NCBI GenBank assembly: GCA_964582645.1
Contig: CAZOTB010000007.1
Span: forward strand, 7,940 to 71,939
From: an uncultured Verrucomicrobiota bacterium
GTDB taxonomy: Bacteria; Verrucomicrobiota; Verrucomicrobiia; Palsa-1439; CAZOTB01
Length of the DNA stretch: 64,000 bases
Direction: 5' to 3'
This document shows, in pieces, positions 6,101-34,908 of this stretch (position 1 is the stretch's first letter; each line of letters begins with the position of its first letter). The notes beneath the pieces were generated by a model. The model was not told the origin of the DNA. It worked only from the letters and a program-made list of their open reading frames with translations, and ran no database searches. The position numbers and the translations under genes were made by a program.

Positions 6101-6167
6101 GTAGAGCGCTTCAGCGCGGGCTTGGATGTTGCCCCGGCTGACTTTACGACCCGCTGAAGCGCTCTAC
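6101..6167. repeat. REPIN-like inverted repeat, family A, between convergent fadJ and metallothionein genes
   Basis: GTAGAGCGCTTCAGCGCGGG (6101-6120) and CCCGCTGAAGCGCTCTAC (6150-6167). GTAG ends; same family as 2-65. Confidence 0.8.
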
Positions 6168-6177
6168 TCCGAACACC

Positions 6178-6381
6178 TCACGGCTTGCAGCAGTCGTGAT
6201 CGCAGGCGCAGTCCTCGAACGTGCATTCGGTCAAACACGCCCGGCTGCAATAGAGCACGTTGCCTTTCCGCAATCCCTTGTCCAGGTCCACCATGCAGTT
6301 GCAGCTCGCGCAGGCGCATTTGATTCGATTGGAAGTCCGAGCGCGCGCGGCGGGGTTGGAAGACGACTTCTTCGCTTTCAT
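6178..6381 (-). CDS. smtA: Prokaryotic metallothionein (SmtA/BmtA family), 67 aa, 11 Cys
   Basis: KCACASCNCMVD..K....G..YCSRAC matches the SmtA pattern KCACxxCxCxVD...YCSxAC. RBS AAGGAG precedes the ATG at 6381. Confidence 0.85.
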   Translation of the reverse strand: MKAKKSSSNPAARARTSNRIKCACASCNCMVDLDKGLRKGNVLYCSRACLTECTFEDCACDHDCCKP

Positions 6382-6448
6382 GAGTCTCTCCTTTTTTCGT
6401 GATGCAAGAGAACATAGTCCACCCGACCGCGAAGGCAAATTCGGAGAG

Positions 6449-7360
6449 CTACAATTCGTGCGTGCTCCGATAGCGGCCCGGGGAGATGCCGATCAACTTC
6501 TTGAAGCTGTGGGCGAAGAAAGCTGGTTCGGCGTAGCCCACTTCGCCCGCGATGCGATCGACGGTCTGGTCGGTCTGCCGGAGCAACTGGCACGCGCGCT
6601 CCATGCGGACGCGGCGCAGGTATTGCACAGGAGTCGCCCCGGTGCTGCGCAGGAACACGCGCCGAAACTGCGCTTCGGAGAAGCCGGTCGCGCGTGCGAG
6701 TTCGGCGATGAAGATCGGCTGGTTGAGATTCTTGCGGATTGTTTCGAGCGCAGGCAGCAACCGGAGTAGATCGGCGACCTTCGATTCATGGGCGTCGAGC
6801 GTCATCCCGGTGCTGTACTCACGGATGAGGCGCAGCAGGATGCGAAGAATCAACGCTTCCAGTCCTCGCTCGTATCCTGCCGGACGCAGCGCGTACTCGC
6901 GGCAGGCCGCCTGAAACATCATGTCCATCCGTTTGTCGCCGCGCAGATCAAAGAAGTCCGGGAACTGGAGCAACTCCGGCAACGTGAGCGACTCAAACAC
7001 CGTCGCCGTGTAATGCACCGAGATGACGTGGATCGGGTTCTTCGGATCGTGGGTGGCGGCGTGGCGTTTCCCGCGAGGGAAGTGAGCGCAGATGCCGGGC
7101 TTAAGTTCGAACTTCCTCCCCTCGACCCAGGCGGTACCGTGTCCGCGCGTGATGTAAAAAAGCATATCGTCGCCGACGCGTCGCTCCTTCATCGCCCATC
7201 GCGGCACGCACTGATGCCAGATGGCGGTGACGCCGCCCACGGTGATGTGGTGGAGGAGACGACCCAGCCAGTCCTCGTTGGAAATCGCGGGAAATGGCTC
7301 GAAATCCGTGACTGCCACGCTCAACGGCCCCGTGTGTTTCAAGTGCGACAGATCGTTCAT
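6449..7360 (-). CDS. AraC family transcriptional regulator (cupin sensor + HTH)
   Basis: N-terminal cupin (MLFYITRGHG...HAATHDP). C-terminal LARATGFSEAQFRRVF..IAGEVGYAEPAFFAHSFKKLIGISPGRYR. Confidence 0.93.
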   Translation of the reverse strand: MNDLSHLKHTGPLSVAVTDFEPFPAISNEDWLGRLLHHITVGGVTAIWHQCVPRWAMKERRVGDDMLFYITRGHGTAWVEGRKFELKPGICAHFPRGKRHAATHDPKNPIHVISVHYTATVFESLTLPELLQFPDFFDLRGDKRMDMMFQAACREYALRPAGYERGLEALILRILLRLIREYSTGMTLDAHESKVADLLRLLPALETIRKNLNQPIFIAELARATGFSEAQFRRVFLRSTGATPVQYLRRVRMERACQLLRQTDQTVDRIAGEVGYAEPAFFAHSFKKLIGISPGRYRSTHEL

Positions 7361-8330: not shown

Positions 8331-8388
8331 TCTCCTGCGTCAGTTTCGAGTTGCGGTCTGTTCGTCCGACGACTATTCTTTGGTGGTC

Positions 8389-10011
8389 TTGCGGAGGAAC
8401 ATTGTAGTCACAATTCTGTTGGGTCTGGCAAGCGCGGCAATCGCGCTGGCACAGACCGATTCGCCCCCGGGCCGCGTGGCGCTCCCTTCGGCGAGAATCG
8501 TTCTGGATTGGAAATACGCACCCCACCCGCCCTCTGTGTTGTCGGTTAGTCCGGGAACTGTTCAGTTTGCGGAAACGACCGTCGGCGCTGCCGTCAGCCG
8601 GGACGTTCGTCTCGCCAATACCGGCCGCGAGATTCTGATCGGCACAGTCGAGAGCCGGGGCGACTTCCGGATTGTCGCCAACGCCCCGTATGTTCTCGCG
8701 CCCGGCGAAGCTCGCAGCTTCGCGGTGGAGTTTGTGCCGCGGAAACCCGGCGAGCATAGCGGCTACCTCATCTTCCGAGGTGAACACGGCGCGGTCAGCC
8801 TCCTCAACGGCACGGCGGTCGCCGCCCCCACGATTGCGCGTCCCGCGGCGGCGGTCGTTCCCGAGATTCTCGCTCTCGGCGGGGGCACCTCCTTCCTGCT
8901 TCGCTGGCAGAGCGAGCCCGGTCGCGATTACCAGGTTTGGTTCAGCGAAGACCTTGTTCATTGGACCCGCGCAGGCAATCCGGCCGCGGCAAATGGAACC
9001 ACAATGAGCTTCCACGATGACGGCAGCGTGATTGCCCTCCCGCCCGTGGCGGCGCAGTCGCGATTCTACCGCGTCGGTGATTCGGGAGGGATCGTCGGTT
9101 TCCGTCGCGTACAGTTGGCCGGCTCCGACACGCCCTTGAGCGTGCCGTTCCTGAAAGCAATCGTGGCGCAGGGCTCAATTGACGGCGTGAACACCTGCTC
9201 CATCGCCGACACCGGTGCTGCGCTCCGCCCCGGGCAGTTTCGGTTCGATGCCGCGGGCGCGGCGGAGACGTATGCGTTGACGATCAGCTCCGGCACGCAG
9301 GCAGGCCGATGGTTTCTCATCACCGACAACGACGCGCAGACCATTACGGTCGAGGACGCGGAAGGCAACTGCGCTCTCCTGCAACCCGGCGACAAATACA
9401 TCGTGCATCCATTGCAGCGCATCGCCGACGTGTTCGGGCCGCCGAACGATCCGTCCCTCGGTCGGGACGATCAGATTTTCCTGTGGGATGTCGCCTCGCA
9501 GAGTTACGACGCCCCGATCACGTTGGGACACAGTTCAGCGGACAACCGCGACGCGTGGGTGCAGGGCGTGGACGTGGCTGATGCCGTGCCGCTGCTGCCC
9601 GGCGAGGGGATGCTCGTCAAGCGCGGCGGCGGCGGCAGACGGGAGTTGCTGTTGCTTGGCGCGGTCTCGCCCGTGCCCACGCTTCAACCGATTTCCCCGG
9701 GCAACAATCTTGTCGGCCAGCCCTGGCCCGTGCCGCTGCGCGTGGCGGGCAGCGATTTGCTTTCGTCGGGCTTCGCAGGAGCGCCCACCTTCAACGCGGC
9801 TGACAAGCTCTATTTGCTGAACGGCAAACGGAGCGGGTTCAAAACCGTCCTTTGGTTCAACACTGCCCTCAAGCGCTGGCTCTCGCCCGAGGGCAACGTG
9901 CGTCCCATGCAGGTCGAATTGCCGCCTTGCAGCGCGTTGTTCATTCAGCGCAACCGCGTGAGCGGGTTCGAGTGGCTGCAGAAGCCGCCCGCCGCGCATG
10001 CCTCGGAATAG
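8389..10011 (+). CDS. Secreted mosaic protein: signal peptide, ASH/choice-of-anchor-D-like Ig domain, TIGR02597-like C-terminal region
   Basis: TTG start gives MRRNIVVTILLGLASAAIALA. Ig-like segment LSVSPGTVQFAETTVG..LAPGEARSFAVEFVP. Internal YQVWFSEDLVHW..RFYRV motif, then VGFRRVQLAGSDTPLSVPF. Confidence 0.65.
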   Translation: MRRNIVVTILLGLASAAIALAQTDSPPGRVALPSARIVLDWKYAPHPPSVLSVSPGTVQFAETTVGAAVSRDVRLANTGREILIGTVESRGDFRIVANAPYVLAPGEARSFAVEFVPRKPGEHSGYLIFRGEHGAVSLLNGTAVAAPTIARPAAAVVPEILALGGGTSFLLRWQSEPGRDYQVWFSEDLVHWTRAGNPAAANGTTMSFHDDGSVIALPPVAAQSRFYRVGDSGGIVGFRRVQLAGSDTPLSVPFLKAIVAQGSIDGVNTCSIADTGAALRPGQFRFDAAGAAETYALTISSGTQAGRWFLITDNDAQTITVEDAEGNCALLQPGDKYIVHPLQRIADVFGPPNDPSLGRDDQIFLWDVASQSYDAPITLGHSSADNRDAWVQGVDVADAVPLLPGEGMLVKRGGGGRRELLLLGAVSPVPTLQPISPGNNLVGQPWPVPLRVAGSDLLSSGFAGAPTFNAADKLYLLNGKRSGFKTVLWFNTALKRWLSPEGNVRPMQVELPPCSALFIQRNRVSGFEWLQKPPAAHASE

Positions 10012-13660: not shown

Positions 13661-15076
13661 ATGCCGTTGAACATCAAAGAAGCGGTCGCCGCGCGACTCG
13701 GCGAGAATTACGAACTCCATGAGAAATACATCAACCCGACGTTGGTGAAGGTGTTTCGCACAATCGGGTTCGACAAGGTGTACACGAAGGCGAAGGGACA
13801 ATACCTCTGGGACAAGGAGGGCAATCGCTACCTCGACATGCTCAGCGGGTTCGGCGTGTTCGGCATCGGGCGCAACCATCCGAAGATCGCCCAGGCCATC
13901 CGCGACGTGCTCGACTTGGACCTGCCCAACATGATCCAGATGGACTGCGCATTCCTCGCCGGCCTGCTGGCCGAGGCGCTGATCAAACGCTGCCCGCCGC
14001 ATCTTGAGGCGGTGTTCTTCTGCAACTCCGGCACCGAGGCGGTCGAGGCGTCGCTCAAGTTCGCACGCGCCGCGACGGGCCGCAGCAAGTTCGCCTACCT
14101 CGATCATGGCTGGCACGGACTAACGATGGGTTCGCTTTCCATCATGGGCAACGACGAGTTCCGGGAGGGCTTCGGCGATTTTCTCCCGGGCGAAGTCGTT
14201 CCATACGGCGATCTTGGCGCACTGGATCGTGTCTTGTCGCAAAAGGATGTCGCTGCGTTCGTCGTCGAGTGTGTTCAGGGCAAGGGGGTGCGAATTCCGA
14301 GCGACCATTTCCTTCCCGCGGCACAGGAGATCTGCCGCAAGCACGGGACGTTGTTCGTGTGCGATGAAGTGCAGACCGGCTACGGTCGCACGGGCAAGCT
14401 GTTCGCATTTCAACACTGGAATCTCGAGCCCGACATCATCAGCACGAGCAAGGCTCTCAGCGGCGGGTATGTTCCCGTCGGGGCGATGATCACGAGGCGC
14501 TGGATTTACCAGAAAGTCTTTCATCGCATGGATCGCTGTTGGGTTCATTCCTCCAGTTTTGGACGCAACAATCTCGGCATGGCCGTCGGCCTCGCCACCT
14601 TGAACGTCCTCGACGAGGAAAACCTGATTGAGCGATGCGCGACGCAAGGGAAGAAGTTGATTGACGCCGTCAACGGCCTCAAAGCCAAACACGAAGTGTT
14701 GATGGAAGCGCGCGGCAAGGGGTTGATGATTGGCATCGAATTCCATGAACCGAAGAGCCTCAAGCTCAAGATGGCTTGGAAGATGATTCACGCAGCGCAC
14801 GACGGCTTGTTCGCGCAGATGGTCGTGATGCCGCTCCTGCAAAAGCATCACGTGCTGACGCAGGTCAGCGGCAACCACGGCGACATCATTCGCATCCTCC
14901 CGCCGTTCGTCCTCAGCGACGAGGACATCCAGTACTTCGTGAACGCGCTCGACGATATCTTGAGCGATTGCCACAAACTTCCCGGCCCGATGTGGGACCT
15001 CGGCACCAACCTCGTCAAAGTCGCGCTTTCGCAGAAGGGCAGGAAGGAGCCCGAGCCGGTGGCCGCTGCACGCTAA
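13661..15076 (+). CDS. hpnO: Class III aminotransferase, HpnO-like (aminobacteriohopanetriol biosynthesis)
   Basis: YLDMLSGFGVFGIGRNHP, DLPNMIQMD, NSGTEAVEA, DEVQTG, PLP Lys in SKALSGG. HpnO-typical tail EFHEPKSLKLKMAW..GLFAQM..H.LPGPMWDLG. Confidence 0.7.
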   Translation: MPLNIKEAVAARLGENYELHEKYINPTLVKVFRTIGFDKVYTKAKGQYLWDKEGNRYLDMLSGFGVFGIGRNHPKIAQAIRDVLDLDLPNMIQMDCAFLAGLLAEALIKRCPPHLEAVFFCNSGTEAVEASLKFARAATGRSKFAYLDHGWHGLTMGSLSIMGNDEFREGFGDFLPGEVVPYGDLGALDRVLSQKDVAAFVVECVQGKGVRIPSDHFLPAAQEICRKHGTLFVCDEVQTGYGRTGKLFAFQHWNLEPDIISTSKALSGGYVPVGAMITRRWIYQKVFHRMDRCWVHSSSFGRNNLGMAVGLATLNVLDEENLIERCATQGKKLIDAVNGLKAKHEVLMEARGKGLMIGIEFHEPKSLKLKMAWKMIHAAHDGLFAQMVVMPLLQKHHVLTQVSGNHGDIIRILPPFVLSDEDIQYFVNALDDILSDCHKLPGPMWDLGTNLVKVALSQKGRKEPEPVAAAR

Positions 15077-19263: not shown

Positions 19264-19333
19264 CGTAGCCGCGAGCGTAAGCGAGTGGCCCCGGCAACCA
19301 GGCGCTCTCCGCTCGCTTACGCTCGCGGCTACG
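19264..19333. repeat. REPIN-like inverted repeat, family B, between convergent PhyH and dnaE
   Basis: 22-bp perfect arms CGTAGCCGCGAGCGTAAGCGAG / CTCGCTTACGCTCGCGGCTACG. Contains the dnaE TAG stop (19329-19331). Confidence 0.9.
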
Positions 19334-22300
19334 CCGCCTTCTCCCGCGCGAAGCCACCGTTGAACTGCCGACGCTCGGGCTTGGGCATCGCGGTGTCGGC
19401 TTTGACGAACACCGTCTCCTCGCCGAGTAACGCCTCGATTTCGCGGATGAACTCCGCGGTGGGCGCGATGCAGAAATGCTGGTTCGTGTCGAGGAACACC
19501 AGCTCGCCGCTCGGGTACTCGATCACCAGGAGCACCGGCGTTCGTCCGCCATGCTTTTCGAGGACGGCACTCAACTCCTGCAACGTTGCCTCGGTTGTGT
19601 GCGCGGCCTGGAGGCGGACGTGGACCTGTTTGGTCTGCCGCACGCGCACTTCCTGGATCGGCAGGATTTCCTGTGCGGCGATCTTGGGCTTTTCATCGCG
19701 CGAATTCATGCTGCCGCACACGTACACGGCGGCGTCGGTCTGGAGATGCTTGCCGTACTTGGCGTAACAATCCGGGAAGGCCACGACCTCGATCGAGCCT
19801 TCCATGTCTTCCAGAATGAACGAGGCCATCGGCTTCTGCTCGGCCTTGGTGACTGTGTTCCGTAAGGCGGTGACAATCCCGCCCGCACGGACCATCTGCC
19901 GGTCGGTCAGTTCGAGCGCCTTCGAGGTGGGCGTGAGTTCGTAGCGTTCGAGGATGTCGCCATGCTGCGCCAACGGATGGCCGGTGACGTAGAATCCAAG
20001 CAGTTCTTTCTCGAACGCCAGCCGCTGGCTCGCCGGCCACTCGGGCACGTGGGGGGCCTTCGATGGCGGCGGCGCGGGTTCGGAGTCGAATGCGCCGAAC
20101 AACGACACCTGTCCGCGTGCTTTGTCCTGTTGCACGCTGGCCGCGCGGCCGAGCACGTGATCAATGGTCGCGGCCATTTGAGCGCGCGATTGCCCGAGCG
20201 AGTCGAACGCACCGCACTTGATGAGGCATTCCACGACTTTCCGGTTGCAGAGTCGCGTATCCACCCGCTCGGCGAAATCATACAGCGTCTTGAACCGCCC
20301 GGCCTTTGCGCGCGCATCGAGGATGGATTGCACGGCCATCTCGCCCACGCCTTTGATGGCGGCGAGGCCGAAGCGGATGGCGCGGAGCGCGTTATTAGTT
20401 GTTGGTAATTGGTTATGGGTCGAATTGGTCGTCGAGTCACCAGTGACCAATGACTGATTACCAGTAACTGCCGTTTCAACCGTGAATCGGATGCCGCTCG
20501 TGTTCACGTCCGGCGGCAGCACTTCAAGCCCCATCGCACGAGATTCGCGGATGAACAACGCGAGCTTGTCGGTGTTGCTCAGATCGTTCGACATCAACGC
20601 GGCCATGAACTCCACCGGATAATTCGCCTTGAGATAGGCGGTCTGATACGCAACGACCGCGTAGGCGGCAGCGTGCGATTTGTTGAATCCGTACCCGGCA
20701 AACTTTTCGAGCAGATCGAAGATCGCGTTGGCTTTCTCCCTGGGGATCTTGTTCTTCTCCCAGCAGCCCTTGAGGAACGTCTCCCGTTGCTTGGCCATCT
20801 CCTCGACCTTCTTTTTGCCCATCGCGCGACGCAGCAGGTCTGCTCCGCCGAGCGTGTAGCCCGCAAGCGCCTGGGCGGCCTGCATGACCTGCTCCTGGTA
20901 GATCATGATGCCGTAGGTCTCACGACAGATCGATTCGAGAAGCGGATGCTCGTACTCGATCTTTTTCCGACCGTGGCGCCGCTCGATGTAGTCGGGAATC
21001 AGGTCGATCGGCCCGGGACGGTAGAGCGCGATCAACGCGATGATGTGTTCGAGGCTGCTGATCTGGAATTTCCGGCACAGGTCGCGCATGCCACCGGACT
21101 CAAGCTGGAACAGGCCGATCGTGTTTGCCTTGTTGAGCAGGTCGTACGTCGGCGCGTCGTCGAGCGGAAGATTGTGGATGTCCACGTCCACGCCCTGCGT
21201 TTGCTTGACCAATTTGACCGTCTCGTCAATCACGGTGAACGTCTTCAACCCGAGGAAGTCCATCTTCAACAGGCCGAGGTCGCCGACCGGGTTCATCGCG
21301 TATTGCGTGACCAGGCCGCCGTTTTCATCCTTCTGGAGCGGGAGCAGTTCCACGAGCGGTTGCGCGCCGATCACGACCCCGGCGGCGTGTGTGCTCGCGT
21401 TGCGCGAGATGTCCTCGAGCACGAACGCGGTGTCAATCAGGTCCGTGACGGTCTGGTTGCTCCGGTATTCCTTCTGGAGCTCGGGGACCTGCTCGAGCGC
21501 CTTGTGGAGTGTGATCTTGGGATCGTTGGGAATCATCTTGGCGAGCCGGTCGGCCTCGCTGAAGCTCAGACCCATCACGCGCGCCACGTCGCGCACCACG
21601 GCTTTTGGCCCGAGCGTACCAAAGGTGATGATTTGCGCGACATTCGCTTCGCCATATTTCTTGCGCACGTACTCGATGACTTCGCCGCGTCGGTCGTCGG
21701 CAAGGTCAATGTCAATGTCGGGCGGGCTGATGCGTTCGGGATTCAGGAATCGCTCGAAGAGCAGGCCATACCGGAGCGGGTCCACAACGGAGATTTCCAG
21801 CAGATACGTCACGAGCGAGCCCGCTGCCGAGCCACGGCAACCCACCGCGATGCCGTTGCGTTTGGCGAAGCTGACGAAATCGGCGACGATCAGGAAGTAA
21901 CTGACGAACCCTTGTTTCTCGATGACTCTAAGTTCGTGCTCCATCTGCTCGACGACCTTGCGCTGGGACTCCGGGAGCGTTGATTTCCAATCAGCTATAT
22001 CAGCCAGCGTTGGGCCCAGACGAGCAGGGCAATGAGCGTGGGAGGCCGACTCCGTCGGGCGACCATGAGTTTCAGTTGTCTGATCGAGGTCGCCCGACGG
22101 AGTCGGCCTCCCACAGTCCCGGCCTGGCGTGGTACGATCCAAAATGCCTTCGGTCTCGATGCCATATCGCTTCTTGAGGCCGATGAGACACTGATGAATC
22201 AAGTAGCCTTCGCGCGAGAACCCGGTGGGCGGATCGAAGACGGGAAAACGCAGTTTCCCGAACTCGAGATTGAGGCTGCATTTCTCCGCGATGGCGATGG

Positions 22301-23102
22301 TGTTGCTGACCGCGTCCGGCACTTCCGCGAACAGCGCCTTCATCTCCTCCGCAGACCGCAGGTAGAACTGCTGCTCGACGTACTTCATCCGCTTCTCGTC
22401 TGCCAGTGTGGTCTGCGTGCCGATGCACACGAGGCAGTCGTGCGCGTGCGAGTGATTCTTGTCGAGGTAATGCACGTCATTGGTTGCGACCATCGGCATG
22501 TGGAACTCGCGCGCCCACTGGATCAGGTGACGGTTCACCTCGCGTTGCGCCGGGATGCCATGGTTCTGCAACTCGAGATAGAAATCGCCCGGCTCGAAGA
22601 TGTGCCGGAACTGGTCGAGAGCATTCCTGGCCTGATCGAGCATGCCGTTGGTGATCTTCTGCGGCACCTCGCCCTTGAGACACGACGAGAATCCGATCAG
22701 CCCCTTCGCGTGTTGCGCCAGGAGTTCCTTGTCTATGCGCGGCTTGTAGTAGAATCCTTCGAGGTGGGCCGCGGTGACGAGTTTGATGAGATTGCGATAG
22801 CCGGTATCGTCCTTGGCGAGCAGGAGCAGGTGGTTGTACGCGTCGCGTCCGCTGGTCGCTTTCCGTTCCCGTCGGTCTCCCGGCGCGATGTAGGTCTCGC
22901 AGCCGATGATCGGATTGACGCCCTCCTTGCGCGCCGCTTGAAAGAAATCAATCGCGCCATGCAGCACCCCGTGGTCGGTGATAGCCAACGCGGGAAACTT
23001 CAGCTTCGCCGCCTTTTCGACGAGCTTGTCCACGCGGCACGCGCCATCGAGCAGGCTGTACTCGGTGTGAACGTGCAGGTGGACGAAGTCCGCGTGTTGC
23101 AT
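19329..23102 (-). CDS. dnaE: DNA polymerase III alpha subunit with two repeat-derived in-frame insertions
   Basis: PHP domain HLHVHTEYSLLDGA, GCRGSAAGS, catalytic PDIDID, KMDFLGL, YQEQVM, FNKSHA, HhH GLAAIKGVG, OB fold. Confidence 0.97.
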   Translation of the reverse strand: MQHADFVHLHVHTEYSLLDGACRVDKLVEKAAKLKFPALAITDHGVLHGAIDFFQAARKEGVNPIIGCETYIAPGDRRERKATSGRDAYNHLLLLAKDDTGYRNLIKLVTAAHLEGFYYKPRIDKELLAQHAKGLIGFSSCLKGEVPQKITNGMLDQARNALDQFRHIFEPGDFYLELQNHGIPAQREVNRHLIQWAREFHMPMVATNDVHYLDKNHSHAHDCLVCIGTQTTLADEKRMKYVEQQFYLRSAEEMKALFAEVPDAVSNTIAIAEKCSLNLEFGKLRFPVFDPPTGFSREGYLIHQCLIGLKKRYGIETEGILDRTTPGRDCGRPTPSGDLDQTTETHGRPTESASHAHCPARLGPTLADIADWKSTLPESQRKVVEQMEHELRVIEKQGFVSYFLIVADFVSFAKRNGIAVGCRGSAAGSLVTYLLEISVVDPLRYGLLFERFLNPERISPPDIDIDLADDRRGEVIEYVRKKYGEANVAQIITFGTLGPKAVVRDVARVMGLSFSEADRLAKMIPNDPKITLHKALEQVPELQKEYRSNQTVTDLIDTAFVLEDISRNASTHAAGVVIGAQPLVELLPLQKDENGGLVTQYAMNPVGDLGLLKMDFLGLKTFTVIDETVKLVKQTQGVDVDIHNLPLDDAPTYDLLNKANTIGLFQLESGGMRDLCRKFQISSLEHIIALIALYRPGPIDLIPDYIERRHGRKKIEYEHPLLESICRETYGIMIYQEQVMQAAQALAGYTLGGADLLRRAMGKKKVEEMAKQRETFLKGCWEKNKIPREKANAIFDLLEKFAGYGFNKSHAAAYAVVAYQTAYLKANYPVEFMAALMSNDLSNTDKLALFIRESRAMGLEVLPPDVNTSGIRFTVETAVTGNQSLVTGDSTTNSTHNQLPTTNNALRAIRFGLAAIKGVGEMAVQSILDARAKAGRFKTLYDFAERVDTRLCNRKVVECLIKCGAFDSLGQSRAQMAATIDHVLGRAASVQQDKARGQVSLFGAFDSEPAPPPSKAPHVPEWPASQRLAFEKELLGFYVTGHPLAQHGDILERYELTPTSKALELTDRQMVRAGGIVTALRNTVTKAEQKPMASFILEDMEGSIEVVAFPDCYAKYGKHLQTDAAVYVCGSMNSRDEKPKIAAQEILPIQEVRVRQTKQVHVRLQAAHTTEATLQELSAVLEKHGGRTPVLLVIEYPSGELVFLDTNQHFCIAPTAEFIREIEALLGEETVFVKADTAMPKPERRQFNGGFAREKAA
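20391..20468. repeat. AT-rich heptamer palindromic tract in frame inside dnaE
   Basis: GTTATTAGTTGTTGGTAATTGGTTATGGG ... CAGTGACCAATGACTGATTACCAGTAAC encodes VTGNQSLVTGDSTTNSTHNQLPTTNN. Confidence 0.7.
22038..22114. repeat. REPIN-like inverted repeat, family C (GTGGGAGG...), in frame inside dnaE
   Basis: 27-bp perfect arms GTGGGAGGCCGACTCCGTCGGGCGACC / GGTCGCCCGACGGAGTCGGCCTCCCAC with a 23-bp spacer. Confidence 0.9.
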
Positions 23103-23215
23103 GACGGATTAAAAGCGCGAGCAAAAAGCGGAGGCAAGATTTTTCGCCGGGAAGTTATTCACCTTGATTCCACCGTGCTTGAGTTTCGAGCTTCATTCGG
23201 GTACAGGAAATCCCG

Positions 23216-24688
23216 ATGAGCACAACAAATTACCAATCTTACAAGGGCATTCCATCCATCGCGGGCGTTTGCTCGATGGCCGATGCGATGAAGCCCGGGT
23301 TGTCGGTTGAGGAATGCGTGCGACGGCACAAACGCTACCACTGGGCGTTTCGACGGCTGCACGAGATTTTCACCGCGCGCATCCCCGCGGAGCCGATTTA
23401 TGAGTTGAAGATGGCGTTCAGTCTGCACGCGCATCTCTGCGCCGAACACACCGCCGCCCTCCGGAAACGCGTCGGCGAGATGCGCGAGCCGCCGCTTGGG
23501 TTGGAAGAATGTCCCGATGCAAACCTCGACGTCTTCTTTGACGAGATCCTCTGCGCTCCGACGACTGAGGAGCTAGTGCTCGGCCTGTACGAGAAGGCGG
23601 TACCGGCCTTGCAGGCCGGCCTCGAGCGACACCTCGCCGACACGAACCGATTGGCGGACCATCCGTCGGTGCGGGTGTGCCGATTCGCATTGATGGAACT
23701 GGCGGAAGTGGCCGACTTCGGGAGGAAAACGATCCAGTGCCTCGTGGATGCGAAGACGCGCCAGCGGGTCGCCGGCTGGCTGCAGTTGCTGGATGATTGT
23801 CTGGCTGCCGCCGGCGGGCTCGATGGTGTGGCGGCCGCCGTCCCCGGCGGCAATGGGCGCTCCGCCGCCGGGACGGCCGCCACCGCAACCCGCACGATTG
23901 TTCGCCAGCATTCCGCCACACCCTACAAGTTCGACGGCACGCCAAAGCGCGACGAACGTTTTCCCGACCCGTACAACATGGGGGTGAACGCGGAGACGTT
24001 CCTCTACACACCGGAGTTCTCGCCCCGGGCGAAAACGCTGATGATGTTCTACAAGCGCATCCGGGAGATTGACGTGCCCGAGATGATGGCCAGCATCCTC
24101 ACCGAGACCAAGGGCAAGCCGTGGGAGTACTACCGGGAAATGACACGCCAGCTTTGGGACGAAGCGCGGCACGGCATGATGGGGGAGGTGGGGTTTGTGG
24201 CGTCGGGAGTGGATTGGCGCAAGGTGATGATCAATTTCACCTGGTCGCTGGGTTTGAACACGCAACTCAAACCATGGGAGCGTCATGCGGTGCTCTATTT
24301 CATCGAACAAGGCCTGATGCCCAAAACGGGCAAGCGGTACGAATGGGAGACGGCGGTGGCCTCGCAGAACCCGCTCTCGGCGTTATTTCAGGACTACGAT
24401 TGGGCGGACGAGGTGTTGCACGCGCAGATCGGGCGGACGTGGTACGTGCCGGAGTTCAAGAGCACGCAGGAGGCGCTCAAGTACGGCGACGAATGCTGGT
24501 CGAAGGTGTTGAGCAACTGGCGCGGGTGGAAAGAGGCTGGGCTGACGCAGCATCGCAACTGGTGGCCGGATGTGTATCGCGACGCGTGCAAGGTCTGGGG
24601 CATCGAACCCGACCCGAAGGAGCTTGCATTCAACCAGACGTACGAAACGACGCGCGCCGACTTGAAGCAGATGACCGGCTCGGCGTGA
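23216..24688 (+). CDS. Ferritin-like (DUF455-like) protein, probable di-iron domain
   Basis: C-terminal half has EIDVPE, WDEARH and DWADEVLH (two D/ExxH motifs). N-terminal half is helical with HAHLCAEH. Confidence 0.7.
   Translation: MSTTNYQSYKGIPSIAGVCSMADAMKPGLSVEECVRRHKRYHWAFRRLHEIFTARIPAEPIYELKMAFSLHAHLCAEHTAALRKRVGEMREPPLGLEECPDANLDVFFDEILCAPTTEELVLGLYEKAVPALQAGLERHLADTNRLADHPSVRVCRFALMELAEVADFGRKTIQCLVDAKTRQRVAGWLQLLDDCLAAAGGLDGVAAAVPGGNGRSAAGTAATATRTIVRQHSATPYKFDGTPKRDERFPDPYNMGVNAETFLYTPEFSPRAKTLMMFYKRIREIDVPEMMASILTETKGKPWEYYREMTRQLWDEARHGMMGEVGFVASGVDWRKVMINFTWSLGLNTQLKPWERHAVLYFIEQGLMPKTGKRYEWETAVASQNPLSALFQDYDWADEVLHAQIGRTWYVPEFKSTQEALKYGDECWSKVLSNWRGWKEAGLTQHRNWWPDVYRDACKVWGIEPDPKELAFNQTYETTRADLKQMTGSA
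23828..23883. repeat. GTGG-type REPIN-like palindrome, family D, in frame inside the ferritin-like gene
   Basis: GTGGCGGCCGCCGTCCCCGGCGGC ... GCCGCCGGGACGGCCGCCAC encodes VAAAVPGGNGRSAAGTAAT in the inter-domain linker. Confidence 0.65.
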
Positions 24689-24704
24689 GCAGCCGAGGTG
24701 GTGA

Positions 24705-25445
24705 CTACTTCTGCTGTGCCGTCTTGATGTGGGCGCCGATGTTCGACACGGTGTCCACCCAGATTTCATCCGAATCGGTCAGGTGACGACAGAGGCGCGT
24801 GAGGACGTTCTTCGAGATAGATTGGCGACGGCTCGGCCCCATCTCATGGCTTACCAGGATCAGCCACCCTCCCCGTTTCAGCGTGCTGTCAATCCAGTCC
24901 TTTAGGTAGCCGAACGGTTTGCAGTCGGAGTCCACACCCATCGCTTGTGCCAGATCACAGACGGTCGGATCGTTCGCAGTCTCATCCGGGAATCCACGCC
25001 CGACGAGGAAATGCTTTGCCACGAGCGGGACGTAGCTCAGCAGCCCGAGCCCCCGGCCGACGTATTTCTGTCCGCACGGATAGGCGAACGACCGCGCTGT
25101 GACGCCGAGGAGTTTCTGAATCATCGCATTCGCCTCGATCAACTCGAACTCCATCTGCTCAATGGTGTAATCCTCCAACACATGGCTGGCGCCCCAGCCA
25201 AAGTTGGCTGTGCAGGGGTGATGAACGCTGTGGTTGCCGACCTCGTGTCCCGCGCGGACTGCCTCCCGCCAACCATCCAGTCGCTGCTGCATCGCATGGA
25301 AGCTCACGTAGAACGTGCCACGAATGCCGAACTTGGTCAGAATGGGAATACCGGTATCAATCTGCGACAATCGCGCGTCGTCGAATGTCAGACTCACCGC
25401 CGCCTTCTTTCCGCGGGGCCATCGGAATCGTTTGCATGATTTCAC
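24705..25445 (-). CDS. Polysaccharide deacetylase (CE4/NodB-like) family protein
   Basis: AVSLTFDD, HEVGNHSVHH, FAYPCG. Confidence 0.88.
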   Translation of the reverse strand: MKSCKRFRWPRGKKAAVSLTFDDARLSQIDTGIPILTKFGIRGTFYVSFHAMQQRLDGWREAVRAGHEVGNHSVHHPCTANFGWGASHVLEDYTIEQMEFELIEANAMIQKLLGVTARSFAYPCGQKYVGRGLGLLSYVPLVAKHFLVGRGFPDETANDPTVCDLAQAMGVDSDCKPFGYLKDWIDSTLKRGGWLILVSHEMGPSRRQSISKNVLTRLCRHLTDSDEIWVDTVSNIGAHIKTAQQK

Positions 25446-25461
25446 GAATCCTCTCCGCAGG

Positions 25462-26304
25462 CTACAGCTTCACAAACTTACCCAATGCCTTCTTGTTGAA
25501 CGCGACATCGAGCGCCCGGAACAGTGCGAGGGTTTCTGCGCGCGGCACGCTTTCCTTGCGCGTCTCGAAGAAGGTGAAAATCCGACGCAACAACTCGTGG
25601 AAGAACGGATCCTTCTGGCAGCTCACGTGCACGGCCTTCGCATCGCTGACGAGCATCGCCTGAAATTCGCACGCGCAGCCCGTGTGCAAGAACACGTTCG
25701 CCGTGCGTCCGCCTCCGAAGCGAAGGATCAGTTGGTGGTGCGCCCCGTCGGCGAGACGCATCACCGCCTTGACGTCGTCTCCCATCACGCTGATCGCCAT
25801 CTCGAGCGGATGGACGATGTATTCCTCGAAGCTGCCCCCGCCTGCAAAAGTTTGAAGGTGACGCACTTTGTCCCGGCCGAGTTCTGCCGCGGCATTGGTC
25901 AGACTGGACGCGCAACGCAGCGCCGAGGTCGAAATCACCGGCACGTGATGTTTATCCGCCAGCTCGAAGATCTGCTTTGCGACCCGGAAGCTCGGCGCGA
26001 AAGTCTTGTCCACGTACGTGGGCTTGCCGATCGGAAACGCCTTCCGGCAAAGCGCCAGGTGCGTCTCCGGGTTCGAAGGCGCAAGGATCATGATGCCGTG
26101 GCAATCGGACATCTCGCGCGGGTCGGCCACGTACTGGATTCTCTTCTCCGCCGCCCACTTCCGCCCGCCCACTTCGTCCAGGGCCCAGCACTTCGCGACT
26201 TCCCAGCCGCAATGCTTGAACGCGGGTTCGTCACGGAGCAGGTGCAGGAAATGGTTGGCGTGCCAGTTGTCGAGTTTATAGTCAACGAAACCGATTCGTT
26301 TCAT
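25462..26304 (-). CDS. Gfo/Idh/MocA-like oxidoreductase (divergent)
   Basis: MKRIGFVDYKLDNWHANH, GIMILAP..PETHL, GKPTYVDKTFA, ISTSALR, YIVHPLE. Confidence 0.7.
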   Translation of the reverse strand: MKRIGFVDYKLDNWHANHFLHLLRDEPAFKHCGWEVAKCWALDEVGGRKWAAEKRIQYVADPREMSDCHGIMILAPSNPETHLALCRKAFPIGKPTYVDKTFAPSFRVAKQIFELADKHHVPVISTSALRCASSLTNAAAELGRDKVRHLQTFAGGGSFEEYIVHPLEMAISVMGDDVKAVMRLADGAHHQLILRFGGGRTANVFLHTGCACEFQAMLVSDAKAVHVSCQKDPFFHELLRRIFTFFETRKESVPRAETLALFRALDVAFNKKALGKFVKL

Positions 26305-26311
26305 AAAGGTG

Positions 26312-28570
26312 TCACGCCAAAGAGAGAATGTATGTTTCGCCTGGTTTTGTCACGAAGTGGATGTCTGAGCCGGGAGGGAACACACGCTGCCCAACCTTGA
26401 CCGGCCGCGTCGAGTGCGGATGCTCGATGCAGAGCCGGCCGCCCGATTCGCTCTGAACCTCGGCCTTTGCGAATGCGCCGTCGCGTCGCCAGGCCGATAC
26501 CAGAAACGCTCCCTCCGCGCGCAAGTTTGTGAACGCCACATTGCCCCACGCCTCCGGAACGGCCGGGAAGAGGCGCAGACGTCCGCCCCAGCTTTGCAGC
26601 AGCATCTCGTTGACGGCGTGGGCGGCGCCGAAGTTCCCTTCGAGCGTGAACGGCCGGTAGTGGAAGCGCGATGCACCGGCGCTCTTGTAGTCCCCGTTCA
26701 GGTGAAATGTGTTGGGCGACGCGCAGTAGTCGAGATAGTTGTTCAATCCCCAAAGCGCCCGGTTCGGTTCGCGCAGTCGAGCCCCGATACACGCATACCA
26801 GGAGAACGAATAGCCGCACCAGAAGCCGGTGCCCATGGATTCGATCTCCGAAATCGTGTTGCGGATGATCTCCCGGTCGCGATCGCTGCCTTCGATGTTC
26901 ACATCGCCGAGCGGGAAAATCGGCATGCATTGCGCGGGATGACGGTGCGACTCAGTCAATCGCTGCCCCTGCCAGATGGCCAGTCCACCCTCGGGCGCGG
27001 GTGATTTGGGTTCGGTTGGTGAGAGATGGTACGGCTGCAGCCGGGAACGAACGCGATCCCAATGCTCTGCTTCCTTGGAATCCCGGCCCAGAACCTTCGC
27101 CGCGGCGCTCGCCGCTTCGAGTGCGTACCGGATGTTAGCGAGATCATACGTACTGTCTTTAGCCCACGCTTCAATCCAGTTGTGGAAATACTCGGGCGAA
27201 CTGGAGTAGTGAACGTGATAGATCCCCTTGCGGTCACGCGTGAGTTGGGACACGCAGAACCGCGCGACCTCGCTGAGAAATGGATAGCCGACGTTGCGGA
27301 GGAACCCCTTGTCCATCGTGTAGCGGTAATGCCACCACACTTGTTGCGCGACCCACGCGGCGTTGGAGCGGCTATACACGTACGGCGCCCAACCGCGGAC
27401 TATCGCGCCGTTGAGACCGTGTGAGCACGGGATGTTGGCGCCGGGCGCACCGTAGAACTTCCGCGCGAAATCCCGGTAGCGCGGCAGCAATTCGAGCAGC
27501 CACTCCGCAAACGCCCGGCTCTGCTCGACACGATTGGCGGTGAGCGCAGGCCAGTAGCTCATCTGTGTGTTGAGGTCGTGATGATAATCGCCGCGCCACG
27601 GCGGCAGCGCCATTTCGTCCGCCGTCCACACGCCTTGCAGTGAAATGGGCGGTGTGCCACGCCGCGCGGTCGAAGCGAGTTTGTACATCTCGGCGTACCA
27701 GAGATGCTCGATGCGTGTGTCGGGAAGGCGGATGTTGGCGAGCTTCCAATAATTCCGCCACCAAGCGACGTGAGTGCGCTCGAGTGCATTCGGGCCGGTC
27801 GCCTTGGCATCTTCGAGCACACCGATCGCAAGCGGCAACGGATCGCTGCCGTTGTATGCCTGTTGCACGGTTGCGTAGAGCACCCACTCGCCGCGCACGC
27901 GGAGGTTGGTCCATGCCACGGTGTACGACATCCCCTCGGCGCATTCTTGCACGATGTATTCGATGCCGCCGCGTGTGCGGCCTTTCTTGAGAGCGGGGTA
28001 GCCCAGGCTGCGAATCTGCCCCGCCGCCAGCGTCCCATCGGATGGACTGACGGCGCGAGAGCGGTCGAACGGAGAGAGAAAACCAACTCGTGGTTTGCCG
28101 TTGCGCACGCGAACCACCACAAGCGGGCTTTGTGCGTGCACATAAGCAGTGACCTCGAGCTTGCCGATTCGAGTGCGGCTGATGGCGGTCGCGAAGTCGA
28201 GATGACTGGCAAACGGCCCCGCGTTGCCACGAGCAAAATCGAGCGTGATCCGCCCACAAGGCAGCTTGGTTGGATAAGCGATCGTCTTGCGGTTCTTCTC
28301 GAAGATCGAGACAATCCGTTTCACATCGCGGCGGTCCACGAGCCTTCGCAGCGTCTTCCAGTTGAAGTCAGGATGAAACACGCCCGGATCGTCCCTGTTA
28401 TCCCAGAGGTCGCTGCGATCCACCGACAGGTTGAGCGGGTGGCCGTCGCCCCACACGAGCAACCCCATCAGGCCGTTGCCGAGCGGCAAGGCTTCGTCCC
28501 AGCGCGAGACCGGGGACGTGTAATGAAGGCAGTGCCTGTGAGGATCAACGGAAAGCGGAGCGGGTTTCAT
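26312..28570 (-). CDS. Glycoside hydrolase family 95-like protein (alpha-L-fucosidase/galactosidase)
   Basis: WDEALPLGNGLMG, SLQGVW..W.GDYHHDLNTQMSYWP, SSPE, HRHPAQ, FTLEGNFGAAHAVNEMLLQS, LFPAVP..W. Confidence 0.85.
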   Translation of the reverse strand: MKPAPLSVDPHRHCLHYTSPVSRWDEALPLGNGLMGLLVWGDGHPLNLSVDRSDLWDNRDDPGVFHPDFNWKTLRRLVDRRDVKRIVSIFEKNRKTIAYPTKLPCGRITLDFARGNAGPFASHLDFATAISRTRIGKLEVTAYVHAQSPLVVVRVRNGKPRVGFLSPFDRSRAVSPSDGTLAAGQIRSLGYPALKKGRTRGGIEYIVQECAEGMSYTVAWTNLRVRGEWVLYATVQQAYNGSDPLPLAIGVLEDAKATGPNALERTHVAWWRNYWKLANIRLPDTRIEHLWYAEMYKLASTARRGTPPISLQGVWTADEMALPPWRGDYHHDLNTQMSYWPALTANRVEQSRAFAEWLLELLPRYRDFARKFYGAPGANIPCSHGLNGAIVRGWAPYVYSRSNAAWVAQQVWWHYRYTMDKGFLRNVGYPFLSEVARFCVSQLTRDRKGIYHVHYSSSPEYFHNWIEAWAKDSTYDLANIRYALEAASAAAKVLGRDSKEAEHWDRVRSRLQPYHLSPTEPKSPAPEGGLAIWQGQRLTESHRHPAQCMPIFPLGDVNIEGSDRDREIIRNTISEIESMGTGFWCGYSFSWYACIGARLREPNRALWGLNNYLDYCASPNTFHLNGDYKSAGASRFHYRPFTLEGNFGAAHAVNEMLLQSWGGRLRLFPAVPEAWGNVAFTNLRAEGAFLVSAWRRDGAFAKAEVQSESGGRLCIEHPHSTRPVKVGQRVFPPGSDIHFVTKPGETYILSLA

Positions 28571-28614
28571 GGTAGATGCGCACAGCCAGACGGTGTGATG
28601 CGGGAGTGCTTTGT

Positions 28615-29658
28615 CTAAACGCGATAGCGTTGGAACTCGTGTCGCGCCTGGATGCCGCGTGCGATCCAGAACTCTCGCTTGGCGGGAAGGCAATAAAAGC
28701 TGTCAATCGCCAGGCCGCGACGCTCCCCTTTCGGACGCTGACAGATGTTTTTGCCCTCGCCGACACCTTCGTCGCAGAGACACTTCTCGATGATCTTGCC
28801 GTCAATGCGACCACAATAACGTCGCCCCAATTCCGCCATGCGCGGGCCGCGGTACTTGGTGTTGGACTTGGGATTGTAATCAATGTCCTGCTTCGCGAGC
28901 CGCACGATGTTCGGACACTCGTAGTGGTTCGCGCGTGTGATCACGTCCTCGCACCGCACCGCCTCGAAGCGACCGGGCAGGCCTTCGATCACCCACACCT
29001 CGCGCTCGGCGTCGGCGATGAAGAACACGTAACAGCCCGCAAGCTTTGTTCGGCCTAGCAACGCGAGCGCCTCCCGGCAGTTCCGGCATCCGAGGATACC
29101 CGCGATAAGCGCGTACGTGGGAATGCCGACCTTGGGTTTGATCTTCGGCAGATACCCCGCGCCCGTCCAGACGAGTGACATGCCGTGTTCGTTGATGCCC
29201 GCCGAGGCATAGAGGCCCGGGTAGGAGTAGAGCAGCATCGCGGGATGCCCCGTCATTTGTAGCCGCGTCAGACTTGACCATGTGTACAGGTGCGAACCCC
29301 AGTCCCAGTTTTGTCCGATGATGGCGTTGCCGTCCTTCGAGCCGCCGCGGGTGGCGCCGATGGCGGTGCAGGGCTTGGTGTGGACGATCTCTTCGTGCAG
29401 AAGGACGAGCGTGATTTCCTCGACGGAACGTCCCGACCCTTCCGCCATGCCGCGCACGAACTCGACGACGTGCCGTTCCCAGCGTTTGAACACCTTCCAG
29501 CATCGGCTCGCGTAGCGCAGCCGCTCCGGGTTGGGCGGCACTTCCATGTGGAGGAATGCATCAATCGCTTCGGCGTGTTGTTCGCCATAGTGACGTCCGC
29601 ACGACCGGGGCGATCCTTTGAGTTCGGTCAATCGGTGAATGCTGGGCAGTTTCTTCAT
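28615..29658 (-). CDS. Peptidase C45 / acyl-CoA:6-APA acyltransferase family Ntn hydrolase
   Basis: GSPRSCGRHYG, nucleophile in CTAIG, GQNWDW, GINEHG, TRANHY. Confidence 0.85.
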   Translation of the reverse strand: MKKLPSIHRLTELKGSPRSCGRHYGEQHAEAIDAFLHMEVPPNPERLRYASRCWKVFKRWERHVVEFVRGMAEGSGRSVEEITLVLLHEEIVHTKPCTAIGATRGGSKDGNAIIGQNWDWGSHLYTWSSLTRLQMTGHPAMLLYSYPGLYASAGINEHGMSLVWTGAGYLPKIKPKVGIPTYALIAGILGCRNCREALALLGRTKLAGCYVFFIADAEREVWVIEGLPGRFEAVRCEDVITRANHYECPNIVRLAKQDIDYNPKSNTKYRGPRMAELGRRYCGRIDGKIIEKCLCDEGVGEGKNICQRPKGERRGLAIDSFYCLPAKREFWIARGIQARHEFQRYRV

Positions 29659-34628: not shown

Positions 34629-34762
34629 TTCGGCCACGCAATGTCCTGCCACGCTCCACGCGAAGCAACACAAATATGGTGAGGATGGTGTGTTGCCTGC
34701 GGGGTTGCAGTCGCCCGTTCGCACAGCAACCGGGCGCATCTGCCGGTTGTTGGTACTCCGAC

Positions 34763-34828
34763 AAGCTGAAGCTTGAACTCCAAACGCAAGCTTCGAGAGG
34801 GTTTCGTTGGGAGTTCAAGCTTCCGCTT
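34763..34828. repeat. Intergenic inverted repeat (AAGCTTGAACTCC / GGAGTTCAAGCTT)
   Basis: AAGCTGAAGCTTGAACTCCAAACG ... CGTTGGGAGTTCAAGCTTCCGCTT with a 13-bp perfect core. Confidence 0.7.
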
Positions 34829-34908
34829 GTTTCAGCACATTTCGTCGGGGACACTCCAACCAACAACTTCGGCATGCGCCCACCGCAACCACGCATCGAT
34901 TCTAGCTC

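Follow-up and report, generated by a model that had tools for sequence, protein, structure and literature searches.

The window, by which we mean the entire 64-kb stretch of verrucomicrobial DNA analyzed here, contains a single dnaE gene (Table 1). As the original prediction had stated, the window holds no other dnaE and the catalytic motifs of this one are intact, with PPDIDID located at residues 460-466. The encoded protein scores 1424.8 bits against the NCBIfam model for replicative DnaE (NF005298, cut-off 1260), and reaches 656.6 against the model for error-prone DnaE2 (NF004225), which lies below the cut-off of 939. Orthologues share 60-84% identity and carry all five Pfam domains (PHP, pol3-alpha, finger, HhH and OB). 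By equivalog score, domain content and catalytic motif, the gene is a replicative dnaE.

The PHP and palm regions of this polymerase are joined by a hypervariable linker bounded by GLKKRYG (residues 308-314) and EQMEHELRVIEK (residues 385-396), and translation places the predicted insertion between these two landmarks, as originally proposed. Among 101 orthologues, the linker defies alignment and ranges from 42 to 95 aa. Alignments to the DnaE structures of E. coli and M. tuberculosis fall into two stretches that break at this linker, and the alignment to the structure of Taq DnaE runs through it with about 60 aa. In an AF2 model that is poor overall (mean pLDDT 61), residues 329-359 form a coil with pLDDT values below 50 and are flanked by confident helices, although low confidence at the insert is to be expected anyway because the insert is missing from the alignment.

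Within the DNA for this linker resides a long inverted repeat whose arms are 27 nt each, 100% complementary, and separated by 23 nt. Each arm also carries a small hairpin of its own (CCGAC-TCC-GTCGG), which folds in the isolated 27-mer, and a CT dinucleotide lies immediately 5′ of the GTGG head of the first unit. The repeat ranks second in length among the inverted repeats of the window and is the sole perfect one of its size, and the window has two occurrences of its 21-nt arm core, compared to 0.01 expected from shuffled sequences. The predicted folding energies are −80.4 kcal/mol for RNA (z = −9.96) and −42.8 kcal/mol for single-stranded DNA (z = −13.1), and no shuffled sequence equals either value. 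Repeat and fold analysis thus reproduce the 77-nt element, the perfect arms and the hairpin within each arm that had been described initially.

Table 1. Features of the dnaE locus, in window coordinates.
Feature	Position	Strand	Details
dnaE, replicative DNA polymerase III alpha	19329-23102	-	1257 aa; open reading frame intact in the window
Hypervariable PHP-palm linker	21951-22160	-	residues 315-384; hosts the REP doublet
REP doublet	arms 22038-22064 and 22088-22114	-	hairpin core of 77 nt, inside dnaE
REP unit 1 (coding-strand 5′ arm)	22088-22114	-	GTGG head, stem CCGAC/GTCGG, loop TCC
Spacer	22065-22087		23 nt; length common to other copies, sequence not
REP unit 2 (coding-strand 3′ arm)	22038-22064	+	reads GTGGGAGG... 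along the plus strand
In-frame insertion	22038-22115	-	78 nt = 26 codons, residues 330-355, CGRPTPSGDLDQTTETHGRPTESASH; 77-nt core plus one flanking base
Polymorphic base	22052		middle of the TCC loop in REP unit 2; C in the window gives codon GAG, A gives TAG
Second, imperfect hairpin	20397-20469		second variable DnaE loop (about residues 880-900); 25-nt arms, 23-nt spacer
REPIN of a different family	19265-19332		GTAGCCGCGAGCGTAAGCGAG; dnaE terminates at the TAG of its GTAG head

These features are those of a REPIN, in which two inverted REP units and a spacer form one long hairpin and either unit alone also makes a short imperfect palindrome. Moreover, every copy begins with GTGG, which conforms to the GT[AG]G sequence found 5′ of the palindrome in GTAG-type REPs. 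One departure is that the dnaE copy is intragenic, where REPINs are extragenic. Since a published survey documents intragenic exceptions (PMC3733652), we regard the dnaE element as an atypically placed member of the REP class.

Units identical to REP unit 1 are found in five other loci (L005, L006, L009, L010 and L011). Two of these loci carry complete doublets (L006 1947-2022 and L011 2638-2714) in which the arms are the same (26-27 of 27 positions) and the spacers, of 22 and 23 nt respectively, are unrelated. Both copies are intergenic, upstream of likely true gene starts, and neither is flanked by a target-site duplication; rather, the flanking bases extend the palindrome. L010 holds a REP singlet, and L005 and L009 carry tandem and inverted copies, including a variant (CCGGC-TCC-GCCGG) that represents a compensatory double change in the stem. 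Copies lie on three other contigs of metagenome Ga0187892, which may not come from relatives of this organism. A gammaproteobacterial genome assembled from a metagenome (Wenzhouxiangellaceae) has at least five copies within an 8-kb locus, both as singlets and as tandem arrays. Apart from these Wenzhouxiangellaceae arrays, a scan of species representatives in a genome collection, which do not include this genome, yielded only chance or coding matches.

No second copy of the family was found in the roughly 76 kb of this genome that we could inspect, which comprises the window plus 12.4 kb more, and the same sequence contains two other REP families with two and at least four doublets, respectively. 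A tblastn search for a RAYT gene in the window and 15 loci, conducted with an approximate E. coli RAYT query that is a weak probe, returned nothing below E = 0.9. The original identification of a REPIN is nevertheless supported by the anatomy of the element, by the free sequence of its spacer, and by the copies with the same arms elsewhere.

The original prediction further suggested, as one of two options, that the insertion is recent, and proposed an alignment of orthologues as a check. The 26 residues are missing from the two closest orthologues, P0001 (84% identical) and P0002 (77% identical), which supports a recent arrival; at the DNA level, the empty site was compared with P0001 (locus L002), in which the 26 codons are absent. 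The insertion had been described as roughly 45-50 aa, a size that agrees exactly with none of the lengths measured here. Codon arithmetic and translation assign 26 residues to the element, whereas dnaE as a whole is 35 codons longer than its closest orthologue and the entire linker spans about 70 aa.

Taken together, these observations make it very probable that the element is a REP doublet of the REPIN type that inserted into the DNA for the PHP-palm linker, where it would be translated and tolerated. A plausible course of events can be outlined. The repeat belongs to the REP class with GTAG/GTGG heads, whose members are palindromic, mobile and non-autonomous. If it behaves like REP systems that have been characterized, a RAYT/TnpA-REP tyrosine (HUH) transposase would mobilize it in trans in the form of folded single-stranded DNA. 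One copy would then have entered the linker DNA without duplicating its target. Because the core and one flanking base together lengthen the gene by 78 nt, and stop codons are absent from the frame in use, ribosomes would read through the element and add 26 residues to the protein. The REP arms carry no stop codon in any of their six frames, and the whole element is open in four of the six combinations of frame and orientation. The inserted residues are hydrophilic and rich in Pro, Gly, Ser and Thr. DnaE would tolerate them because they fall in a surface loop predicted to be disordered, and we infer that the insertion is neutral.

A challenge to simple translation comes from a single base in the loop of the second REP unit. 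JGI contig Ga0394875_0001520 carries A at position 22052, which converts the GAG codon to TAG, and dnaE is called there as two proteins of 350 and 871 aa. This allele appears on two JGI contigs (P0121 and P0003, each on two contigs), and the base in question is the sole internal difference between Ga0394875_0001520 and the window over 14 kb; the other two differences are at the contig end. If the TAG allele is real, then at least some cells would lack a continuous polypeptide across the element. DnaE might then operate in two pieces (a PHP domain of 350 aa and a polymerase core of 871 aa that restarts at Met387), or the stop codon might be overcome by read-through or by a bypass aided by the hairpin. 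Frequent read-through of in-frame stops in bacterial genes has been argued in one study (PMC7918605). Likewise, the ACG codon that precedes TAG recurs in frame 45 nt downstream, so that only the TAG allele displays the arrangement ACG-TAG followed by ACG that a bypass would use.

We consider it unlikely, however, that this allele displaces the simpler account. The GAG codon is found in at least three assemblies, and the allele of the window is the one on Logan contig L025. The change affects one base within a strong hairpin, where sequencing or assembly errors are likelier, and it is seen in assemblies only. There is no clear Shine-Dalgarno motif ahead of Met387, chance alone would place an ACG within 60 nt, and conserved recoding signals are not seen in relatives. 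We also considered an Illumina hairpin error as the source of TAG in these assemblies. According to the published lag model, such miscalls repeat the one or two bases just before them (PMC3141275). The G-to-T change is unlike the neighboring bases, and so the lag model does not fit, which counts in favor of a genuine allele, although such an error may still lie behind it.

A second alternative is that the element is a MITE, in which the terminal inverted repeats are what is left of an insertion sequence that has decayed, and that it is moved by a DDE transposase instead of depending on RAYT. Its size (77 nt) and 27-nt terminal inverted repeats would suit such an element, the same contig encodes an IS4-like DDE transposase outside of the window (L021 13678-14802), and CT can be read as a 2-bp target duplication if the boundaries are shifted by one base. 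In contrast, target duplications are missing around the copies in L006 and L011, whose flanks extend the palindrome. The one-arm singlet of L010 and the tandem direct arrays of L005 are typical of REPs, not of MITEs, and the same is indicated by the stem-loop within each arm, the compensatory variant and the GTGG head. Neither the flanking target duplication nor the absence of singlets expected of a DDE-type MITE is observed, and therefore we judge this origin to be improbable.

A third possibility is that the hairpin is specific to this locus and is retained by the host, perhaps as a translational pause between domains, an RNase processing site or a DNA hairpin related to replication. This idea derives its appeal from the fact that a very stable hairpin sits exactly at a domain boundary, and from the other hairpins of this gene and its relatives. 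In a second variable loop, the same dnaE carries an imperfect, AT-rich, heptamer-like hairpin whose arms are complementary at 19 of 25 positions, a value reached by none of 300 shuffled sequences. A related heptamer hairpin occurs in the same genome (L018 1150-1255), and the dnaE hairpin, like the REP doublet, is missing from P0001 and P0002. A REPIN of yet another family overlaps the end of the gene, and a second copy of this family lies at 4966-5013.

In many orthologues from Verrucomicrobia, both DnaE loops contain hairpin repeats that belong to other families, and in two further verrucomicrobial dnaE genes both loops have hairpins of the genes' own families. A palindrome scan that uses protein sequences alone gave 10 and 11 matches in the two loops, compared to two in the remaining 115,172 residues. 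Recurrence at the same two loops in many Verrucomicrobia could indicate a function for the host, as could the situation in L016 and L017, where about 20 kb of sequence contains the respective repeat just twice, both times within dnaE. However, the same 27-nt arms appear between genes in settings that have nothing in common with dnaE, as well as in another phylum; the elements differ in sequence family, without kinship, from one orthologue to another; and the nearest orthologues lack the element altogether. A scan for terminators and promoters around the element found none, which also disposes of an intrinsic terminator. The sole Rfam match (mir-341) scores 30.8 bits relative to a gathering score of 90, and we take it to be a generic hairpin match, not a credible family assignment. 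For these reasons, a host function has a very low probability.

The perfection of the arms had also been attributed, as one of two options, to selection on the DNA or RNA structure. There is no need to invoke such selection, since the intergenic copies of the family normally have near-perfect arms as well. The perfect arms would instead reflect the youth of this copy together with the usual near-perfection of its family, and not selection by dnaE. Finally, although assemblers based on de Bruijn graphs can be confused by palindromes, there is virtually no chance that the element is a chimeric hairpin made by an assembler, because at least five contigs from several samples contain it (the window, JGI 3300037465, JGI 3300037501, one further JGI contig and Logan SRR12687342), with the same site, identical flanks and an intact frame, and an assembly artefact, which had been named at the outset as grounds for rejection, is thus ruled out as far as assemblies can show.

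The REP doublet in dnaE therefore appears to be one more selfish palindromic repeat that owes its survival in an essential gene to a landing site in a loop tolerating extra residues. There is also a practical use for annotation, in that one gene caller split dnaE at the element, and peptides derived from REPs can enter databases as falsely ‘novel’ sequence. The wider pattern of two loops across the phylum is worth more than the single dnaE case. Given that the same two loops hold hairpin repeats of at least four unrelated families, the data suggest that much of the hypervariable linker sequence of DnaE is recycled mobile DNA, and the recurrence at these loops offers a natural setting in which to study what makes REPs gather in replication and repair genes. 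It is conceivable, but doubtful, that the TAG allele is real and dominant in some samples, that DnaE there is two-piece or recoded, and that the two loops serve as safe harbors that collect hairpins. If so, then the linkers of a central replication enzyme in Verrucomicrobiota would be built and reshaped by mobile palindromes, and a genuine TAG allele would permit a direct test of DNA polymerase III alpha as a two-piece enzyme versus rescue by recoding.

Several known systems bear comparison with this locus. Translational bypass in gene 60 of phage T4 relies on matched take-off and landing codons, a stop codon after the take-off codon, and a nascent-peptide signal. The TAG allele resembles gene 60 in that a stop directly follows a potential take-off codon within a hairpin and a matching codon is located about 45-50 nt downstream. 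Here, however, only some assemblies have the stop and the codon match is expected by chance, and so bypass at this site is a conjecture from sequence.

Mini-inteins in DnaE, such as the cyanobacterial split DnaE intein, comprise at least about 130 aa, start with Cys or Ser, and end with His-Asn followed by Cys, Ser or Thr. They share with the present element only the fact of an extra segment within DnaE. The insert of 26 aa starts with Cys but ends with SASH followed by Ala, has neither the C-terminal His-Asn plus Cys/Ser/Thr nor intein blocks, and is a perfect palindrome as DNA. The original rejection of an intein was thus correct with regard to both size and motifs.

A closer parallel is provided by the Rickettsia palindromic elements (RPEs), described in PMC3733652 as in-frame palindromic repeats that add peptide to apparently functional genes. 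In both systems a palindromic insert contributes an in-frame peptide segment, but the sequences are unrelated and the hosts of RPEs have reduced intracellular genomes. RPE-1 is about 100-150 bp and so exceeds the dnaE element in length.

As first defined (Bertels and Rainey, 2011; PMC3116915), REPINs match the dnaE element in their hairpin of inverted REPs and a spacer, in their conserved arms and spacer length, in their free spacer sequence, and in their compensatory changes. They are by definition extragenic and number tens to hundreds of copies with one cognate RAYT, whereas the copy examined here is intragenic. TnpA-REP acts on single-stranded REP substrates, is guided by GTAG, and cuts at CT (PMC8266576); the dnaE element likewise has a GT[AG]G guide, with a CT adjoining the head.

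The closest precedents come from another member of the same phylum. According to PMC3733652, intragenic REP dimers with GTAG or GTGG heads encode 20-30 aa and are most numerous in Opitutus terrae, where the GTGG variant is documented for GTAG-20. They often reside in replication and repair genes, including O. terrae dnaE2 (a 38-aa dimer) and the dnaE gene of R. conorii. Because in-frame REP dimers within genes, including those of the verrucomicrobium O. terrae, have been published, the dnaE element is of a known kind as judged by that paper. It does not appear to describe the repeated occupation of two DnaE loops by several families, or a nonsense polymorphism in a REP. Compared with the dimers of Di Nocera et al. 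(2013), the element agrees with the O. terrae type in being short, GTAG/GTGG-headed, in-frame and tail-to-tail with variable spacers, and differs in its REP family, its replicative dnaE host, its uncultured lineage and its position in the PHP-palm linker. It is, in other words, a fresh example of the in-frame intragenic REP dimers that have already been published.

The element lies within an open reading frame that scores 1424.8 bits against the NCBIfam equivalog model for the replicative DNA polymerase III alpha subunit (cut-off 1260) and 656.6 bits against the model for error-prone DnaE2, thus failing the latter's cut-off of 939. As the original prediction held, the window has no other dnaE, the PPDIDID motif of this one is unbroken, and the two embedded arms are perfectly complementary, each containing the small stem-loop CCGAC-TCC-GTCGG. 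Shuffles lead one to expect 0.01 copies of the 21-nt arm core, and the window has two. Computed folding energies for the element region are -80.4 kcal/mol for RNA (z = -9.96) and, for single-stranded DNA, -42.8 kcal/mol (z = -13.1). Its product corresponds to residues 330-355 (CGRPTPSGDLDQTTETHGRPTESASH).

The nearest named relatives of this DnaE are Verrucomicrobia MAG proteins with approximately 60% identity, and its two closest orthologues are metagenome proteins, P0001 (81-84% identical) and P0002 (74-77%). Alignment with these orthologues bears out the earlier proposal of a recent insertion, in that the 26 codons are missing from both. In a DNA alignment with L002, the contig encoding P0001, the window has 105 nt more at this site. 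The short linker of P0002 (RTAPRPEKDGQPACLGP) corresponds to the residues RTTPGRD and AHCPARLGP that flank the 26 residues in the window; it joins these flanks and thereby fits the expectation for a precise 26-codon insertion. The linker between the PHP and palm domains (linker 1, from GL..RY to EL.VIEK) spans 42-95 aa and is unalignable across all orthologues, comprises about 60 residues in Taq DnaE, and breaks the alignments to solved E. coli and M. tuberculosis DnaE structures into two stretches. AlphaFold2 modeling of residues 1-640 predicts coil at 329-359 (pLDDT < 50) between helices at 297-324 (block means 85-91) and 366-397 (76-87), in a mediocre model (mean pLDDT 61) wherein an insert absent from the alignment would score low anyway.

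Searching for exact matches to the 21-nt arm core located further copies of the 27-nt unit, including two doublets in metagenome Ga0187892, a sample that also contains the contig encoding P0001. Both doublets lie a short distance 5′ of where the adjacent genes probably truly start and are therefore intergenic, and their flanks prolong the palindrome. Every unit of the family carries a GTGG head, some copies in L005 and L009 exhibit a compensatory stem variant (CCGGC...GCCGG), and target-site duplications are absent from all copies examined. Inverted REP pairs with conserved arms, spacers that keep their length but not their sequence, and compensatory changes are hallmarks of REPINs (PMC3116915), and RAYT (TnpA-REP) transposases use folded single strands as substrates, are guided by the GT[AG]G head and cut at CT (PMC8266576), a dinucleotide found immediately 5′ of the GTGG head in REP unit 1 of dnaE. 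The dnaE element and its copies have the anatomy of GTAG-class REPs and REPINs, which supports the REPIN reading proposed at the outset. The occurrence of a near-identical REP in different phyla could reflect convergence, or a RAYT/REP system that was transferred horizontally.

Coordinates of dnaE, the REP units and other repeats (window unless another locus is named)
Feature	Locus	Coordinates	Description
dnaE	window	19329-23102, minus strand	1257 aa
Element arms	window	22038-22064, 22088-22114	27 nt each, 100% complementary, 23 nt apart
Insert	window	22038-22115	77-nt core plus 1 flanking base, 78 nt, 26 codons
Loop 2 hairpin	window	20397-20469	imperfect, AT-rich, 19/25 complementary, 23-nt spacer
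GTAGCCGCGAGCGTAAGCGAG doublets	window	19265-19332, 4966-5013	25-nt arms, 96% complementary
GTAGAGCGCTTCAGCGCG doublets	window	2-67, 6101-6167	
GTAGAGCGCTTCAGCGCG doublet	L018 (same genome)	8372-8436	
Heptamer-repeat hairpin	L018	1150-1255	GGTAATT-like, intergenic
Longest inverted repeat	window	34761-34830	34-nt arms, 85% complementary, 2-nt gap
IS4-like transposase gene	L021 (source contig)	13678-14802	DUF4372 and DDE_Tnp_1
REP doublet	L006 (Ga0187892 contig)	1947-2022	arms 26-27/27, unrelated 22-nt spacer
REP doublet	L011 (Ga0187892 contig)	2638-2714	arms 26-27/27, unrelated 23-nt spacer
REP singlet	L010		27-nt unit
REP arrays	L005 (Wenzhouxiangellaceae MAG, Gammaproteobacteria)	298-324, 6334-6581	tandem and inverted; 29-nt stretch identical to REP arm
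REP array	L009 (similar marine contig)	4229-4585	tandem and inverted; same 29-nt stretch
Palindrome GTGGGAGGCGCCTCCGCGCGCC	L002	9846-9870	3′ of dnaE, GTGGGAGG-headed
dnaE hairpins	L016	11017-11095, 12623-12693	GTAG-headed, both variable loops
dnaE hairpins	L017	5621-5717, 7236-7336	27-nt arms, 96% complementary, both variable loops

Neither the window nor 12.4 kb of additional sequence from its contig yielded a second copy of the family found in dnaE, and a crude probe for a RAYT gene gave no match in the window and 15 loci. At least two further GTAG-headed doublet families are present in this genome, one with two doublets (GTAGCCGCGAGCGTAAGCGAG) and another with at least four in approximately 76 kb (GTAGAGCGCTTCAGCGCG); with the latter as a third doublet family, the genome carries several GT[AG]G-headed REP families. 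One GTAGCCGCGAGCGTAAGCGAG doublet starts exactly where dnaE ends, such that the stop codon of the gene is the TAG of the GTAG head. The orthologue in L002 has TGA at the equivalent position, followed by a different hairpin, and another palindrome 3′ of that gene (GTGGGAGGCGCCTCCGCGCGCC) shares its head with the REP of the window but differs in its stem. The longest inverted repeat of the window contains AAGCTT motifs, and a gene for an IS4-like DDE transposase lies approximately 2 kb past the right end of the window, close to where the source contig stops.

The window matches contig Ga0394876_0000703 (106,636 nt) of JGI 3300037465 except for four bases, and the same organism was also assembled in JGI 3300037501, JGI 3300043177 and Logan SRR12687342. 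The element is present in multiple assemblies of the same organism and is therefore genuine and fixed in the population that was sampled; an assembly artefact, which the original prediction had named as a refutation, is contradicted by this recurrence and by a Logan contig that is 100% identical to window positions 20884-29188, element included. JGI contig Ga0394875_0001520 (39.5 kb) exhibits three differences over 14,010 nt, two of them near the contig end. The third, at 22052, falls on the central base of the loop (TCC) in one REP unit and changes GAG to TAG, with the result that dnaE is called as separate products of 350 aa (PHP) and 871 aa. Each of these products is on record from two JGI contigs. 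For the 1257-aa product there is one contig on record, and the Logan contig implies it as well, such that each allele is found in at least two assemblies. The TAG allele could still be a sequencing error. However, lag-type Illumina miscalls at hairpins duplicate the preceding bases (PMC3141275), and this G-to-T change does not fit that pattern. If the allele is true, cells need a two-piece enzyme, read-through (compare PMC7918605 on in-frame stops) or a second polymerase. A bypass that takes off at ACG-TAG and lands on an ACG 45 nt further on in the same frame is conceivable, although chance alone is expected to supply such a match. JGI and Logan contigs that otherwise match the window exactly depart from it at 58610-58611, 63975, 63997, 19219 and 19233, and the ends of Ga0394875_0001520 coincide with such sites (19093 and 58610), which suggests that co-existing strains break the assemblies.

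Hairpins recur at linker 1 and at a second variable loop of DnaE (loop 2). In two verrucomicrobial orthologues for which DNA is at hand (L016 and L017), the loop hairpins belong to each genome's own repeat family, with no copies besides those in dnaE within approximately 20 kb per locus. Loop 2 in the window holds a hairpin that none of 300 shuffles reach, that is missing from P0001 and P0002, and that is akin to an intergenic heptamer-repeat hairpin in the same genome. We also scanned 101 orthologues at the protein level for segment pairs encodable by reverse-complementary DNA (perfect over 24 nt or more), a procedure that retrieves the element of the window from protein alone. Ten matches fall in linker 1 (6,944 residues), 11 in loop 2 (3,760 residues) and two in the rest of DnaE (115,172 residues), an enrichment of roughly 80-fold and 170-fold for the two loops, where some matches are one and the same insertion that close relatives have inherited. 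The peptide pairs fall into at least four unrelated kinds (AGILPA/RQDAG, VGADVRR/PPHVG.Y, VGQAS.LP/RRDACPT and that of the window). The scan suggests that about one fifth of the orthologues carry hairpin inserts, almost exclusively in these two loops.

Taken together, the element is probably a REP doublet that inserted recently into dnaE, at a presumably tolerant, disordered linker, and that is likely translated in frame. We rejected a structure selected by the host in favor of this REP insertion, and an intein is dismissed given only 26 residues and a perfect palindrome. REPs inside genes have been described before (Di Nocera et al. 2013; PMC3733652). More than half of those inserts are dimers or groups that encode 20-30 aa, and many lie in genes for DNA synthesis or repair, such as R. 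conorii dnaE and O. terrae dnaE2, the latter with a dimer of 38 aa; GTGG heads occur in one REP family of O. terrae. The dnaE element resembles these REPs as an in-gene dimer of 26 aa with a GTGG head in a DNA synthesis gene. Since intragenic REP dimers are already published, it adds a case rather than a new mechanism, and its interest resides in the way hairpins recur at two loops of DnaE across the phylum and in the stop-codon allele, not in the insertion itself.
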